Shown piece after piece: positions 5,382-40,959 of a DNA stretch of 64,000 nt. The position numbers were made by a program, and so were the translations under genes. The notes under the pieces were generated by a model that worked only from the letters and a program-made list of their open reading frames with translations, made no database searches and was not told the DNA's origin. Origin of the DNA: Zootoca vivipara (Eukaryota); NCBI RefSeq assembly GCF_963506605.1, contig NC_083288.1, positions 40,796,001 to 40,860,000 on the forward strand. Reading direction: 5' to 3'. Position 1 is the first letter of the stretch. The number at the start of each line of letters is the position of its first letter.

Positions 5382-8300
5382 TTCATTCCCCACCCATCTA
5401 GCCGGGCCTCCCCAGCCACTCTGGGTGGCTTCCAACAGGACATTAAAAACACAATAAATGATCAAACATGAAAAACTTCCCTAAACAGGGCTGCCCTTAG
5501 ATGTCTTCTAAAGGTCAGATAGTTGTTTATTTCCTTGACATCTGATGGGAGGGAATTCCACAGGGCGGGCACCACTACTGAGAAGACCCTCTGCCTGGTT
5601 CCTTGTAACCTTACTTCTAGCAGTGAGGGAACCATCAGAAGGCCGGCCCTCGGAGCTGGACCTCAGTGTCCGGGCAGAATGATGGGGGTGGAGATGCTCC
5701 TTCAGGTATACTGGGCTGAGGCCATTTAGGGCTTTAAAGGCCAGCACCAACACCTTGAATTGTGCTCGGAAACGTACTGGGAGCCAATGTTAGGTCTTTC
5801 AGGACCGGTGTAAAATAGTCTTGGCAGCCGCTCCCAGTCACCAGTCTAGCTGCCACATTCTGGATGAGTTGCATTTTCCGGGTCACCTTCAAAGGTAGCC
5901 CCACGTAGAGCACATTGCAGTAGTCCAAGCGGGAGATAACCAGAGCATGCACTACTCTGGCGATACAGTCTGTGGGCTGGTAGGGTCTCATCCTGCATAC
6001 CAGATGGAGCAGTTTCCTATGCTCCCATGATTCTAGTGGCAATGGGTGGGAATTGTAGTACGGAAAGGGTCTGAAGCCATATGGCCCAGACGCAGGTTTG
6101 ATGCTTAAAGAGTAGTAGAAGAAGAATTTGGACTTGATATCCCACCTTTCACTCCCACTCTCAAAGCGGCTAACAATCTCCTTTCCCTTCCTCCCCCACA
6201 ACAAACACTCTGTGAGGTGAGTGAGGCTGAGAGACTTCAAAGAAGTGTGACTAGCCCAAGGCCACCCAGCAGCTGCATGTGGAGGAGCGGGGAAGCAAAC
6301 CCGGTTCCCCAGATTACGAGTCTACCGCTCTTAACCGCTACATCACTAAAGAGTAGGGTTACATTGAACTGCCCTGTGCAAATCACAACAAAGGGGCAAA
6401 GGGGCAGAGCTTCCCACCATTTCAATGGTCCCTGCATATAATTTCCCCATTCATTGGGCATCTGGCATCCTACCTTTTAATCAAGGATGGGGCAGGACGG
6501 GGATGTATTTCACCGCCATGAAAGGGCTCCTGGATAGATGTCCGGCAAAGGATAACTCCCCCCCCCCGAAGTTCTCCACACAGCACCACTCACAACTCTC
6601 ACCTTTCATCAGCCTCTCAGCTAAGGCTAACATTGAAGCCGAACTATCGATGTTCATGTACTCGTTGATACTCTTGCCCCAGATGCCGTGTGCTGCCCTA
6701 AAGTGAAGCGGAAGGAGAGGGAAGAAAGGAGCAGGGTGGAACGTCTATGAATGGTCTCTTCTAAAAGATCCAAGTTGCTGGGATGGAAAGACTCCTGGAT
6801 CAAGGATAAAGAACCCATGGCCCTCCAGATACTGGAATACAGCTACTACTATTCTTGACCACGGACCTGCTGGCTGATGTGAGTTAAGAGTCCAGCAGCA
6901 GGAGGGCCACAGCTTCCCACCCCTATTTACATAAATTGTTCCCTCCCTCAATGCTGCTCAGGAATTAACATGATTTCTCACCAGGTGACAGCGCCCGTTC
7001 CTGAGCCGAAATCCAACAGGGTGCGCGGCTCAAAGTCCGAGACTCTCTTCTGGATCTGAAGGAGACAAAAAGAGAAATTGCTTCGTAAACCTGTCTGTCA
7101 ATTGAACATACATATGAACCTTTCAAAAAAACAACAACAAACAGAGTCCTTTTTGTTGGGGATAATTCAGAGGGAAATTCCCAGGTATTAAAAAAAGAAG
7201 AAGACTATTTATATGGATGCTACTACTGCGGCCCATGTTTTGTTAGCCCCAAAATGGAAAATGAGAGAGGTCCCAAACAAAGAAGAATGGGAACTTAAAC
7301 TGATGGAATACGCACAGCTTGCAGATTTAACATATAGAATAAGAGAACAAGAAGAATGCATGTTTAAAGAAGACTGGAAAATGTTTACTGAATATATGGG
7401 TGAAAACTGTGTTCATTGAAAAACACTGGTAGCATTAAGATAAATTCAACAGTGTAGATAAGTTTTGATGGATGTAACAATGGATTACTGAATGGTTTAG
7501 TTCATGTAAAATATGCAGGGATGTATGGTATGCAAAATGAACCATGGAAAGGGAAGAAGGGAAGCCATTGATTTAAGGTTGTTTAAATGAGTATTTTGAA
7601 ATGTAACTTAGAAAATTTAATAAAAATTGTATACAAAAAAAGAAAAAAAATGAGCCTGTTCGCCGTTTGAAAGTAGGGTACGGTATTTACAAACGCACCC
7701 TACAGTGCGATAACGTTTCTGTGAGGGACAGGGGATATCGCGAAGTCCCTCCCCTCCTGAGTTCAAGCCCATCCCCGAGCACAGGGGAAAGCAGAGAGAG
7801 TTCCGATTCCAGTGGGGAAGCAGGAAGTCGTGTCCGAGGCTCAGGCAAGGTAGCGGAGCCAGGGTCCCAGGTGGGACAGGAAGGGGCAAATAAGGGGGGG
7901 AGACCCATCCCCCCAACTCCGGAATTACGCAGAAAGCGGAGAGGAAAGAGGATGGGTCTACCCAGGCTTTTGTGTTGGAGAAAGACGCGCCAAAAGCCAC
8001 TCGGAGGTTCTGAACCCGACTGAACACATAGCTCCGTGTAAATAGCAATGACTTCAGCACTGTAAATACGCAGCACCAATAAAAGAATAAAATGCAGAGC
8101 TGTGTAGAGTCGTTACTCTGAAGTAGCCCGCTCCGGCCACTGTGACAGCAACCTCCGAGTCTTTTTTTGGGCTACTTTGGAGTTGCCGGGATGAGTGCGT
8201 CAGAGGCGGAGAAATGGCGGCAGATCGCGGAGAAAGCCCAACAGGACCTGCAGCAACTGGCGCTGCAGGCACAGGGGGAATTAAAGGCAGCTAAAGAAGA

Positions 8301-11300
8301 AACCAAGAAGGTCCAGGAGGACCGGCTACAACTTGCGGAACAGGTGAGAGCGCTTCAGGAAAAAGAGCAGCAATTAAGGGCGGTGGCGGTAGAGCTCCAA
8401 AACAAGTTGGATGCCGAGAAAAACAAGGCGGGAGGGGGCCCCCAACTCCAAGTGCTGCCAGGAAGGAGAGCGGGGACCCTAGTAAGCAAGTTCAATGGAG
8501 ACCCGAGGGAATATCATGGCTTTGAGACTGAGATCGTGTATGCTCTGGAGCTGCACCATGATGAGTTCCCTGATGATGAACACAGGGTAGCGTTTATTGT
8601 GGAACACCTTACAGGGGCAGCCAGGGAGTGGCTAAGACCGTTAATCGCGACAAAAAATCCTTGCATGAAGAATGTCAAACTATTTCTAGAGGCTTTAAAA
8701 ACTATGTATGCGTCCGATAGCCATATGGACCAGACCAAGGAGGAACTGCATAATTTAAGGCAAAGAACAATGACAGTTCGCGAATATTGGGCGAGATTCA
8801 CCATGCTAGTGCACAGACTGGGATGGGAACTGCACTCGCCTCCGATGGAAGCGGCGTTCTACCTGGGGTTGAATGAGGATGTGAAAGATGAGCTCTCGAG
8901 AGGTCCAAAGCCCAGTAATATGGATCAGCTGAGCAAAGCGGCTCTGGCGGTGGGGGTGAGACAGGAATCCCGGTGGAACGACAAGCAAGCAACGCGCGCA
9001 AAGCGGGCTTGGTTCCCACGGTCGCAGGAGAAGCCACTCCCCCAACAACCCTTCCAAGCCACGCCTGGGGCCAGCCAGGACCAGGAACCCATGCAAATTG
9101 ATAGCGCGCGCGCGTGGGCTTTTCAAACCCCAGCGGCGACCAGACGCAAGGAGGGAAGGGGCGGGAATTGCTTTCTCTGCAACTCCCCCCAGCATCTCGT
9201 CAGAGACTGCCCACATCGCAGAGAGTGGCAAGGAAAGGCGGGAACGGTTGTGCCCTCCCCCACTGACGCAGCACCACAGCAGGGAAACGGGAAAGCCTGG
9301 TTGCAGGAGACAAGGGGCAGCAGCCAGGCGCAGTCAGCAGACAACAGCCCCAGCCCGCCCACCCGCACAGCGCGGAGCAGAGCCAGCCCACCCCGCCCAG
9401 AGCAGGAGTGGTTCTAGAAGTGACGCTAACGCTCCCAAATGGCTATCCCCTGACGGTCCTCGCCTTAATTGACAGTGGTGCATCAGCCAACTTCTTCTCG
9501 AGAAACTTTGCAGAAGAGCACCAGATCCAGCTTCTGCAGCTGGACTTTCCCCTGCACGTAGCCACCATTGACGGCAGGGAGTTGCTGGGAGGGGCCATCA
9601 CTCATCAAACCCCCCCCCCATGAGAATGACGGTGGGAAGGCACTCAGAGACACTGGCATTCAACGTCACCACCATCTCAGACCCCCCATCGTCTTGGGCA
9701 TGAGCTGGCTGGCGCGCCACGACCCCTCCATCAGTTGGCACCAGAGATGCATCACGTTTGGGTCGGACTTTTGTCTGGAACATTGCATGCAGCACCAACC
9801 AGGGGAGGGGCCTCCAATAGCCACGGTGGCCACCATGCACGTCAAAGGGGGTGAGGCGATACCCAAACCATACTGGGACCTGCAGGAGGTCTTCAGCGAA
9901 GCGGAGTCCGACCACCTGCCCCCACACAGGTCTTTTGACTGCCAGATCAACCTGGTGCCAGGGGCAACGATACCCCCAGCCAAGCTGTACGCCATGTCAG
10001 ATCAGGAACTGGAGGATCTGCGTGCGTTTATAGACAAGAACCTCAAACGGGGGTTCATCAGAGAAAGCAAGGCAGCAGGGGGCAGCCCGGTCTTCTGGGT
10101 GGACAAGAAAGACACGCAACAGCGCCGACTTGTGGTGGATTTTAGACGGCTCAATTCAGTGACAGAGCCAGTGGCTTTCCCCATGCCCAGAGTGGACGAT
10201 CTCCTGACAGCGGCACGCAGGGGCAAGATTTTCACCAAGCTGGACCTGAGGGGGGCGTACAACTAGATCAGGATCCGGGAAGGCGATGAGTGGAAAACCA
10301 CGATGTTCACGCCTCTGGGCTCTTTCGAATATCTGGTGATGCCCTTCGGGTTGCAAGGGGGCTCAGCATGCTTCCAGGCCTTCATGCACCACGTCCTGGG
10401 GTCCCTCCTCTTCAAGAACTGCTTGGTCTTCCTGGATGACATCCTTATCTATTCCAATGACCCAGTGCAACATGTGAAGGATGTCAGGGAGGTGTTGCAG
10501 CGCCTGAAGGAGAACCACCTGTATGTGAAGCTGGAGAAGTGCAAGTTTCACACCAGGGAAGTAGACTTCCTGGGCTACAAACTGTCAGACAAGGGGCTGG
10601 CGATGGACAAGGACAAGGTGCAGGCCATCCTGGACTGGCACAGCCCCAGGACGCGCAAAGATGCCCAACGCCTCCTAGGCTTCGCCAACTTCTACAGGAA
10701 ATTCATCAAGAACTTCTCGCGTGTTACGGCTCCCATCACGGACTGCCTGAGAGGCAAGCAGAAGTTCAGGTGGACACCAGAGGCGCAAGCAGCGTTCGAA
10801 GGCCTCAAGAGGGTGTTCGCTTCAGACCAAAACCTGTTCCACGTGGTGCAGGATGCGCCCCTACGCGTGGAAACAGACGCTTCAGACAGGGCTTTGGGAG
10901 CGATCCTGTTGCAACTGGACGCCAACAGAGAGTGGAGACCTTGTGCCTTCTTCTCCAGGAAGCTGACCCAGCCGGAGCGCAACTACACGGTGTTTGATAG
11001 AGAACTTCTTGCGATCCACGCTGCTTTCCAGCACTGGCGACACTTCCTGGTGGGCGCCAAGCACCCCATCCAGGTGTGCACGGACCACAAGAACCTGGAG
11101 TTCTGGAGAACAGCCAGGGTGCTCAACCAGCGGCAGATACGGTGGGCAGAGTTCTTCTCGAACTTCAACTTCTCCATCCACTACATCCCGGGGGAGCAGA
11201 ATGTCAGGGCGGATGCCCTCTCCCGCAAACCAGAGTACATGGAGCAGGAGTTGCCACCAGCACCCAGGCACATTTTCCCCCCATCAGCATGGTCCTGCGG

Positions 11301-14300
11301 AGCAGCAGTGGTGAGAGAGGCAGAACTCACAGCACTGACAGCAGCTGATGAGTTTGCCACCCGCATCTTCAGAGAACTGAGAGGGGGGAGGGAGCAGGCA
11401 AAAGACTTTGCAGAACGCAGGGGGCTGCTTTTCTACAAGGGGGCACTGTACCTGCCCACCACCCAGCTTCGACGTAAGGTCCTCAAGCAGATGCACAACA
11501 ACCCAACGGCGGGTCATTTTGGAAGGGACAAAACCGCTCACCTAGTCATGAGACACTTCTGGTGGCCAGGGGTGCGGGAAGATGTTAGAGACTATGTACG
11601 GGGCTGTGACACCTGCCAGCGGGCAAAGGTAGTCAGAGCAGCGCCAGCAGGATTGCTGGAGCCCTTAGCCACACCACACAGGCCGTGGGAAGTGGTGTCC
11701 ATGGAGTTCATCATGGACCTGCCTGCGTCCAGGGGCAAGACCGCAGTGTTGGTGGTGGTGGACCTTATGTCCAAAATGTGCCACTTTATACCGTGTGCCA
11801 GGGCGGTCTCTGCAGAAGAGACAGCCAAACTGTTTGTTGACCACGTATTCAGACTGCATGGATTACCTTTAAGGGTTATTTCGGATCGTGGCCGCCAATT
11901 TGTTTCCAGGTTCTGGAGGCGGCTCATGAACCTCCTGCAGGTGGAGGTCAGCTTATCGATGGCTAGACACCCGCAGACCAACGGACAGGCGGAGAGGGTC
12001 AACGCCATTCTGCAGCAGTACCTGAGATGCTATGTCAGCCAGAGACAAACGGACTGGGTGGATCGCCTGCCACTGGCGGAATTTGCCTACAATAATGCAG
12101 TGCACGTCTCCACAGGGGTGTCGCCCTTTAAGGCCAACTACGGGCGCGACCTCAGATCTTTCCCGGAGAGGGAGGGGGAGGAGGAGGAGGAGGGCCCACT
12201 GGCAGAGGATTGGGCAGAGGAACTGGAGACGGTGCACCAGCAGCTCAGAGAACACTTGGAGAGGGCCAAGGAAGCGTACAAGAAGGGGGCAGATCGCCAC
12301 AGGCGACAAGGGGAGGTCATCAGGGTGGGGGACAAGGTTTGGTTGTCCTCGGAGGGCCTTCCCATTAGAGGGAGGTGCAAAAAGCTGGCGCCCAGACGGC
12401 TGGGCCCCTGCACGGTCACGCAACAGGTCAATCCGGTGGCCTTCAGATTGGCACTACCAGAGGACATGAGGGTGCATCCAGTGTTTCATAGATCGCTGCT
12501 GTCGCCGTACAGGGAAAGCAGCAGGCTCCGAGACAGCGAACAAACCCCCGAGGGAGGGGGGGAGAGGGAAGGCAGGGAGCAACTCAATGAGGCCACGGCC
12601 ATCCTTGATTCACGGAGAGGGGTGGGGGGCCTGGAGTACCTCATGGCATGGGAGGATGCTCCACCGTCACAGAATAAATGGGTCCCAGCCACTCAGATAC
12701 AGGAGGAATTCTTGGTGGAAGAATTTCACGCCCTCTTTCCCCACAGACCCAAGCCCTGGCACATGGAAAGGGAGGGGGAGGGGGAGGGGGAGGAAGTACT
12801 GGAGAGCAGTTCACCATGGGGATGGGAAGCGGAGTTTGAGGAACCAGAGGAAGAAGTATGGGCGTCGCCGAGATCCACCCAGTCAGAGGAAGAAGCAGAC
12901 TGGCAGCACATTTTTACCCCCACCAGCTCTGATGCCACGGACTTTTTGGGATTCCAGTCCTCCCAGGCGGAAGGGGGGGGCTCGCAGGACTGGGGGGAGG
13001 TGTTCACACAAACAGGCTCGGAAAGTACTGAGTTCTTAGGCTTCCAGTCGTCACCGACACCTGGGGGGGACCTGGGGAGGGGCGAAGGGGAGCTTGGGAG
13101 GGGGGTGGATGTGAGGGACAGGGGATATCGCGAAGTCCCTCCCCTCCTGAGTTCAAGCCCATCCCCGAGCACAAGGGAAAGCAGAGAGAGTTCCGATTCC
13201 AGTGGGGAAGCAGGAAGTCGTGTCCGAGGCTCAGGCAAGGTAGCGGAGCCAGGGTCCCAGGTGGGACAGGAAGGGGCAAATAAGGGGGGGAGACCCATCC
13301 CCCCAACTCCGGAATTACGCAGAAAGCGGAGAGGAAAGAGGATGGGTCTACCCAGGCTTTTGTGTTGGAGAAAGACGCGCCAAAAGCCACTCGGAGGTTC
13401 TGAACCCGACTGAACACATAGCTCCGTGTAAATAGCAATGACTTCAGCACTGTAAATACGCAGCACCAATAAAAGAATAAAATGCAGAGCTGTGTAGAGT
13501 CGTTACTCTGAAGTAGCCCGCTCCGGCCACTGTGACAGTTTCCGAGCACAATTCAAAGTGTTGGTACTGACCTTTAAAGCCCTAAACTGCCTTGGTCCTG
13601 TATACCTGAAGGAGCATCTCCACCCCCATCATTCAGCTCGGACACTGAGATCCAGCACCGAGGGCCTTCTGGCGGTTCCCTCATTACGTGAAGTGAGGTT
13701 ACAGGGAACCAGACAGAGGGCCTTCTCAGTAGTGGCACCCGCCCTGTGGAACGCCCTTCCATCGGAGGTCAAGGAGATAAACAACTACCTGACATTTAGT
13801 GGGCAGGGTATAAATCAATGTCTCCTGCTCACCAGGGTAGGAAGATAGAGGTGTGTGCATGTGGATGCGTATAGAAACTAGCCTATTGAACAAACTTTGT
13901 TTCCTGATCTGCATACTTTTGCCTCTCACCCTATCCACTGTCATTTGGCCCCCAGGTGGTCACCAAGAATGAAATACTGACCACAGGCTCAGAAAGCATT
14001 TATATGAGGGGCAGGGAACCCAAGCCATATCTATTTTATTCATCCCTGTATTTTTAATCCTGTTTGCAGAGGCAAATTACTGTTTGCCAAATTCGCTCAT
14101 ACCAATTGGTGGGGTGGGGCGTTTGCAAACCGTCTTACAAACCCAAAAATAAAAAGGCAAGACGTATGAGGAAGAGGTGCTGAGGGAAAATGTAGAGGGG
14201 GTGTGTGATCCGTTATTCAAGGCCAGGACAAAGCGGTGACCCATAGCAAGGCATTTATATGCAGCTCAGGTCAGCCTGATCTTCTCTTGAAACTATTCAT

Positions 14301-40598: not shown

Positions 40599-40610
40599 AA
40601 AATCTTGAAC

Positions 40611-40684
40611 AGTCCCTGGGTGGGCTAGAACCACCAACCTTTTGGTTAACAGCCGAACGCGCTAACCGATTGTACCACAGAGAC
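40611..40684 (-). tRNA. tRNA-Asn(GTT) copy, probably a retro-pseudogene
   Basis: GTCTCTGTGG..CAATCGGTTAGCGCGTTCGGCTGTTAACC..GGTTGGTGGTTC.AGCCCACCCAGGGAC; ~5 changes vs the recalled vertebrate tRNA-Asn, including T-loop and discriminator. Confidence 0.85.
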
Positions 40685-40959
40685 CTCTAGGATTTAGTAA
40701 TAGCTAAATTGGACTCACTTTTGCATGTTGCAATTTGTGCACACAACAGCTCCCTCATCTTGTGGTTCAATGTGGTATGTTCACCCCTCTTTAAACTATA
40801 TATTCCCCTAATAATAACTGCATGCTTTATATTCTGCCTATGCTTCCTAGGCATTTAATGTTCTCTAACATTTCGCTTTTCTAAGATTCGTCTGTGTGGA
40901 ATGTGCTTTGAATTTCCTTTGTTACTCTGTGAGATTATTCCTCCCATCCAGGCCCATGG

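Follow-up and report, generated by a model that had tools for sequence, protein, structure and literature searches.

What primes reverse transcription in a Ty3/gypsy element whose primer-binding site (PBS) has no TGG? The question is raised by an element on the forward strand at 7720-13537 of the window, by which we mean the whole 64,000-nt stretch of the Zootoca vivipara genome analysed here (NC_083288.1, 40,796,001 to 40,860,000). The original prediction was that the element self-primes, in the manner of Tf1 of Schizosaccharomyces pombe, with the first 11 nt of its own RNA.

The element has LTRs with a target duplication, gag, pol in the order PR-RT-RH-IN and a polypurine tract. The 5-bp duplication GTTTC lies at 7715-7719 and again at 13538-13542, and the 428-bp 5′ LTR (7720-8147, TG..CA) has 427 of 428 bases in common with the 3′ LTR (13110-13537). 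Two AATAAA poly(A) signals are found in the 5′ LTR, at 8078 and 8086 (8078-8091). The gag frame (8191-9417) is open and carries Retrotrans_gag, Ty3_capsid, DUF4939 and a weak zinc knuckle. It overlaps pol (9267-13413), and the heptamer G GGA AAC inside the overlap (9282-9288) is a predicted site for a −1 frameshift, itself also predicted. Protease, RT, RNase H, integrase, SH3_Tf2-1 and a chromodomain are encoded in pol, and the polypurine tract follows at 13096-13109. The chromodomain, at the integrase C-terminus, scored 27.2 bits against the Pfam Chromo cut-off of 25.1; two sister copies scored 26-27 bits and a second family, described below, 40-45 bits. In PDB searches pol matched relatives from Ty3 and foamy virus, the nearest solved structure being that of Ty3, and gag gave no match; an Rfam search of 7600-8400 returned a chance-level match only. 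In the window copy, pol is disrupted by a frame change at a C run near 9610-9620 and by an in-frame TAG at 10264-10266, so RT would have to come from another copy, while the element's own cis signals are intact. The description of a young element holds for the insertion, but pol of this copy no longer works. Elsewhere in the window, a GC-rich tandem repeat (unit ∼143 bp, at least 6 copies) occupies 1-932, and a tRNA-Asn(GTT) gene lies on the minus strand at 40610-40685.

The PBS (8150-8160, AACCTCCGAGT) begins two bases behind the 5′ LTR, after a GC linker (8148-8149) that is identical in the second family, and is the exact reverse complement of ACTCGGAGGTT at 7999-8009 within the LTR, the predicted self-primer and predicted RNA start. 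The complement is limited to 11 nt on both sides, with C at 7998 opposite C at 8161 and C at 8010 opposite C at 8149. Eleven nucleotides is also the length of the Tf1 primer. The orientation suits priming, as the 3′ end at 8009 lies opposite 8150 and extension from it would enter the LTR end. Of 3000 dinucleotide-preserving shuffles of the LTR, one contained a perfect 11-nt complement to any word that begins 0-4 nt past the LTR end, and the analytic estimate is ∼5e-4.

Around the PBS, a U5-side arm (8115-8129) pairs with a leader arm (8169-8183, ending 7 nt 5′ of the gag ATG) at 15 of 15 positions, two of them G-U. Both this stem and the 11-nt complement are exactly as originally described. 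The minimum-energy fold of 7999-8200 (z −1.86) contains the U5/leader stem and lacks the primer duplex; since the two cross as a pseudoknot, a plain fold cannot display the latter. With primer and PBS blocked, the fold energy was −50.8 over 207 nt, to which the primer duplex would add roughly −18.2 kcal/mol before loop costs, and the unconstrained fold for comparison gave −60.1 over 202 nt. Among 48 distinct copies of the family, 97.7% of the stem cells are paired (a count slightly lowered by one copy, L044, whose leader is misaligned by one column); most changes are one-sided and preserve pairing, and double-sided change was seen in only 1 of 15 pairs. On the 5′ side of the PBS, the best pairing of the preceding 20 nt was no better than in shuffles for 52 of 52 copies in a coarse test, and amounts to only 3 bp in the window copy. 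Of the two duplexes that flank the PBS in Tf1, only one is evident here.

The family to which the element belongs is large and young: 2,245 copies in the genome fit the PBS pattern, and LTR pairs were identical in 31 of the 46 read in a sample. Copies of this kind can be asked if a change in the primer is accompanied by a change in the PBS, and the window copy already presents such a case. It carries a rare C at 8000 in both LTRs (the 3′ LTR copy of the primer is at 13389-13399) together with a compensating G at 8159, while all of the nearest 29 other copies have T and A at the equivalent positions. Genome-wide, primer position 2 and PBS position 10 are T/A in 413 copies and C/A in none, and R has C at all seven loci with a G-type PBS; at one of these, another primer position is mismatched. 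A-type sites number 439, of which 26 match neither R pattern. Fisher's test gives p 2e-15 for this association on the assumption of independent copies, which these are not. The seven G-type copies come from subfamilies ∼80-100% alike. A tree computed after removal of the primer and PBS columns requires six changes for them, and places the window copy among T/A copies by a branch of 0.003. Well-supported branches force only two of the six changes, the bootstrap being unsettled, with two rows on long branches and trees of this kind blurred by LTR recombination. The number of independent origins is therefore soft, because LTR recombination can spread one variant across the tree. The T-A to C-G swap at this position (8000/8159 in the window) turns up in several subfamilies, and the genome has no C/A intermediate; a hot spot, selection or recombination could account for this.

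Paired variants also occur at primer positions 4, 7+8 and 11. In the 48 distinct copies, double-sided changes affect 5 of the 11 primer pairs, with four pair types at position 4. Pairing holds in 98.3% of primer/PBS cells, a value matched by 0 of 500 shuffles and compared with 30-54% in slid registers; the rows were picked for variety, with L068 (a one-base PBS insertion) and rows below 9/11 matches left out of tree and alignment, so that this figure is not a rate. The first 56 Mb of contig C1 contain 56 matches to the family, of which 52 were examined as a sample ordered by position. They gave 50 perfect pairings and two with one G-U, and contained five different primer sequences, each perfectly paired; the other four matches have a common type of PBS. 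From the loose pattern search, 6 of the first 62 matches were dropped as a different repeat or chance. An unrelated repeat on C1 (L062, L067, L071, L080) fits the LTR-end pattern by chance, with 5 copies among the first 100 pattern matches plus a variant, and no pol match on the retrieved side.

Uncompensated changes occur as well. Two are in the 5′ LTR alone (L176, L121) and so arose after insertion, and several are in the PBS alone. In one copy, L177, both LTRs carry two changes in R while the PBS is unaltered. Compensated primer variants, by comparison, were present in both LTRs wherever both were read. We are highly confident that the primer/PBS signal is real and non-random, and very likely functional at the level of the family.

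LTR elements as a rule are primed by tRNA, and half-tRNAs are also known in this role (PMC6317226). A small RNA of the host, such as a tRNA or half-tRNA, might likewise be the primer here, the match to R being incidental. However, the PBS offers no TGG to a CCA end. Moreover, at least seven PBS sequences, from two families, are each complementary to the LTR that they stand behind, and no single host RNA could track them all. The second of these families, with pol 54-59% identical to that of the window family, has the PBS ATGACTCATCT behind the same GC linker (offset +2) and its LTR partner AGATGAGTCAT at a similar distance. It comprises ∼39 copies (L090-L092, L099, L146-L175) with a self-match of 11-12 nt, and the pairing is perfect in 29 rows, 10/11 in one and without an R match in two, a few loci being counted twice. 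A clear counterpart of the U5/leader stem was not found at the same place in this family; most folds have a 5-bp hairpin before the PBS, and in some copies the leader can pair with R instead of U5.

TGG-type Gypsy families of the same genome look quite different, with pol identities of 29-38%, at most 7 nt of LTR complement and a chromodomain in 0 of 6, against 4 of 4 frames scanned from the two self-complementary families. Several retrieved stretches that lacked an LTR pair or a pol match were left out of this comparison. In a tree containing only this genome's families, which separates self-complementary from TGG families, both self-complementary families are split from the others by a branch supported at 100%, for which the tool warned of long branches meeting. 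Judged from these PBS and LTR sequences, we regard a host RNA primer as extremely improbable. Some Gypsy families with TGG-type primer sites (L082, L086, L089, L095; G000:C1, C15) have integrase before RT and a SCAN domain in front, and are presumably Gmr1-like.

The direction in which the complement is maintained can be read from the base behind the PBS (8161 in the window). It is C in 2,221 of the 2,245 copies, G in 19, T in 3 and A in 2. Thus, G accounts for 19 of 24 non-C copies, where one third would be expected (p 5e-6), and G is the complement of the base that precedes the primer. The primer is immediately preceded by GCC (7996-7998), and the rare copies carry its complement as G, GG or GGC behind the PBS: the sequences in the 19 G copies are GGC in 11, GC in 5, and GCC, GA and GTC in one each. 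The GTC copy has a private GAC in place of the usual GCC upstream of the primer, in both LTRs. Copies with such extensions are scattered among ordinary ones, and two are identical to ordinary copies over the tree columns. The mirror change was not seen in LTRs, where position −1 is C in 3,217 of 3,218, T in one and G in none. These counts carry a one-way signature of copying, from the LTR side to the PBS side.

Template switching between inverted repeats turns imperfect repeats perfect, and the imperfect inverted repeat does become perfect in the GGC class, over up to 20 bp. A DNA-level process of this kind, acting between nearby inverted repeats and unrelated to priming, might then maintain the complement. 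Such switching is expected to work both ways, but the U3 letter is found on the PBS side in 19 of 2,245 copies, and the PBS-side letter in U3 in 0 of 3,218 LTRs. It would also alter the 5′ LTR only, contrary to the compensated variants present in both LTRs, and would leave the element without a primer. We give this explanation hardly any probability, and return to copying of the PBS from the RNA end.

Since 99% of copies have no extension, the usual RNA 5′ end should be the equivalent of 7999. The extensions would fit RNA starts slightly upstream, a start at −1 giving G and a start at −2 or −3 giving GG or GGC, with the final C fitting a copy of the cap. We lean towards reading the bases behind the PBS as a fossil 5′ RACE, in which the capped RNA end is copied in each round. 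Starts at −1 to −3 would then be preserved in ∼1% of copies, and the fixed C would be copied from the cap G. The last element, the templating of C at 8161 by the cap, is the part of which we are least sure. In the second family the base behind the 11-mer is A in 38 of 39 copies, matching the T at their −1, so a general rule of cap copying does not fit.

RNA data bear on the start more directly. We read ∼6% of each of three raw RNA-seq runs under the same species label, together with one contig set. Family transcripts are present and mostly sense, and many LTR reads enter from flanking DNA, such that read-through dominates; most reads carry alleles of other copies rather than of the window copy. 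In one run, depth has its minimum near the predicted start and reaches 50-60 over the PBS and gag. None of the three runs, at this depth of reading, has a pile of 5′ ends at 7999, and in one run five molecules have 5′ ends at 7980, 19 nt upstream. The transcription start predicted at 7999 is supported indirectly, by where the complement stops and by the 19 copies in which it runs on, and is neither shown nor contradicted by the RNA-seq reads. In run X14 only, 20 minus-strand first mates start at 8095, a possible 3′ end located 12 nt past the first AATAAA.

These RNA data leave room for a primer that comes from the element's own RNA but not from its capped 5′ end, in which case transcription would start further upstream and the 11-mer would be cut out on both sides. 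The small pile at 7980, the missing pile at 7999 and the lack of a TATA-like word within 7940-7999 speak for this, as do 11 copies in which the complement runs 6-9 nt further into U3. Those long extensions, however, need only two or three changed letters, since TTTT(GG) already lies opposite (CC)AAAA. In the GC class (six copies including GCC) only one further base matches U3 and the last base is C, the outcome expected from a capped RNA begun at −1, and the C−1/A+1 context of the predicted start is retained in 3,217 of 3,218 LTRs. On balance we consider a cut-out primer quite unlikely.

With priming from the RNA 5′ end retained, the following cycle is proposed. Transcription would start mainly at 7999 and sometimes 1-3 nt earlier. 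RNA bases 1-11 would anneal to 8150-8160, and the U5/leader stem would keep the PBS in a loop. By analogy with Tf1, RNase H would cut after base 11, between 8009 and 8010, and RT would extend from 8009 across GC into the LTR end. Plus-strand synthesis would then copy the primer, so that the PBS is rewritten from the RNA 5′ end in every round and therefore tracks changes in R. Because the progeny would take R bases 1-11 from the 3′ LTR, the PBS should lag a change in R by one round, and L177, with R changed and the PBS old, suggests this lag. Judged from sequence features, it is very probable that reverse transcription in this chromodomain Ty3/gypsy family is primed in the Tf1 manner, by RNA bases 1-11 of the element itself. 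The R 5′ end and the PBS were compared within and across families and do covary, and the self-priming originally put forward for this element is supported to that extent.

The mechanism is not new. Self-priming was first demonstrated in Tf1 and has since been implicated from fungi to vertebrates (PMC4600332), and together with a three-duplex ‘pretzel’ is described as common to the Tf1/sushi group, vertebrates included (10.1101/2022.12.06.519325); the statement that it had been proposed for sushi-type elements is thus borne out by the literature. The group and its vertebrate V-clade are defined in PMC6317226 and PMC2774666, and PMC3601003 contributes no more than LTR profiles. In Tf2, start-site choice is reported to determine whether the RNA contains its primer (PMC5341516), and the Tf1 primer to be copied into single-stranded PBS DNA (PMC11042837). 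Our literature search returned no paper on copy-level covariation or on a reptile case, and cap copying or PBS rewriting in Tf1 may already be in print. What the present copies add is a series of naturally compensated changes and a signature of copying in one direction.

More than 2,000 young copies amount to a natural compensatory-mutation experiment, which supports the predicted self-priming of vertebrate elements without a bench assay, and the one-way signature is a general test for any large family suspected of self-priming. The window family is transcribed and comes with base-level predictions, namely a start at 7999 and a cut between 8009 and 8010. If the bases behind the PBS do record the RNA end, the start of a self-priming vertebrate retrotransposon, and the spread around it, could be mapped from genome sequence alone, and this would be the first genetic evidence that such vertebrate elements self-prime.

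Head-to-tail arrays were also seen in this genome. One belongs to the window family (G000:C2:16765331, 16770716 and 16776099), with a spacing of ∼5.4 kb that equals the element minus one LTR; others with ∼5.4-kb spacing, at G000:C4:43036157-43047302 and G000:C8:86372047-86377712, have RNase H matches and are unassigned to family. Tf1 is described as making head-to-tail tandems without integrase (PMC11042837), and unequal recombination would produce such arrays too.

In retroviruses, the progeny PBS is copied from the tRNA primer during plus-strand synthesis. Here, by contrast, the primer would be the element's own RNA end, so that the PBS follows the LTR and can record the transcription start. 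Among the closest parallels are Tf1 and Tf2. They too have a primer in R that pairs with a PBS directly after the 5′ LTR, lack a tRNA site, form a flanking duplex between the LTR and sequence next to the PBS, and carry a chromodomain on integrase (10.1101/2022.12.06.519325, PMC4600332, PMC5341516). Unlike them, the window element is hosted by a vertebrate, has only the one evident flanking duplex and is known from its sequence; moreover, Tf1 is described as having one frame and no CCHC knuckle (10.1101/2022.12.06.519325), whereas the window element has a knuckle of this type and two frames joined by a predicted −1 shift. A −1 frameshift at gag/pol is reported as usual in the Tf1/sushi group outside fission yeasts (10.1101/2022.12.06.519325). 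The element shares with this group the lack of a tRNA-type PBS, a PBS complementary to its own LTR, a flanking duplex 3′ of the PBS and a predicted −1 frameshift; it would work like Tf1 and have the Tf1/sushi features that were examined, apart from the third duplex, which the coarse test did not find. This placement is made by features rather than by a tree of named members. Vertebrate Tf1/sushi chromoviruses resemble it in chromodomain, predicted self-priming ‘pretzel’ and −1 frameshift (10.1101/2022.12.06.519325, PMC6317226, PMC2774666). For those elements self-priming is described as predicted or implicated (PMC6317226, PMC4600332), and to this the window family adds covariation at the level of copies and the signature of one-way copying.
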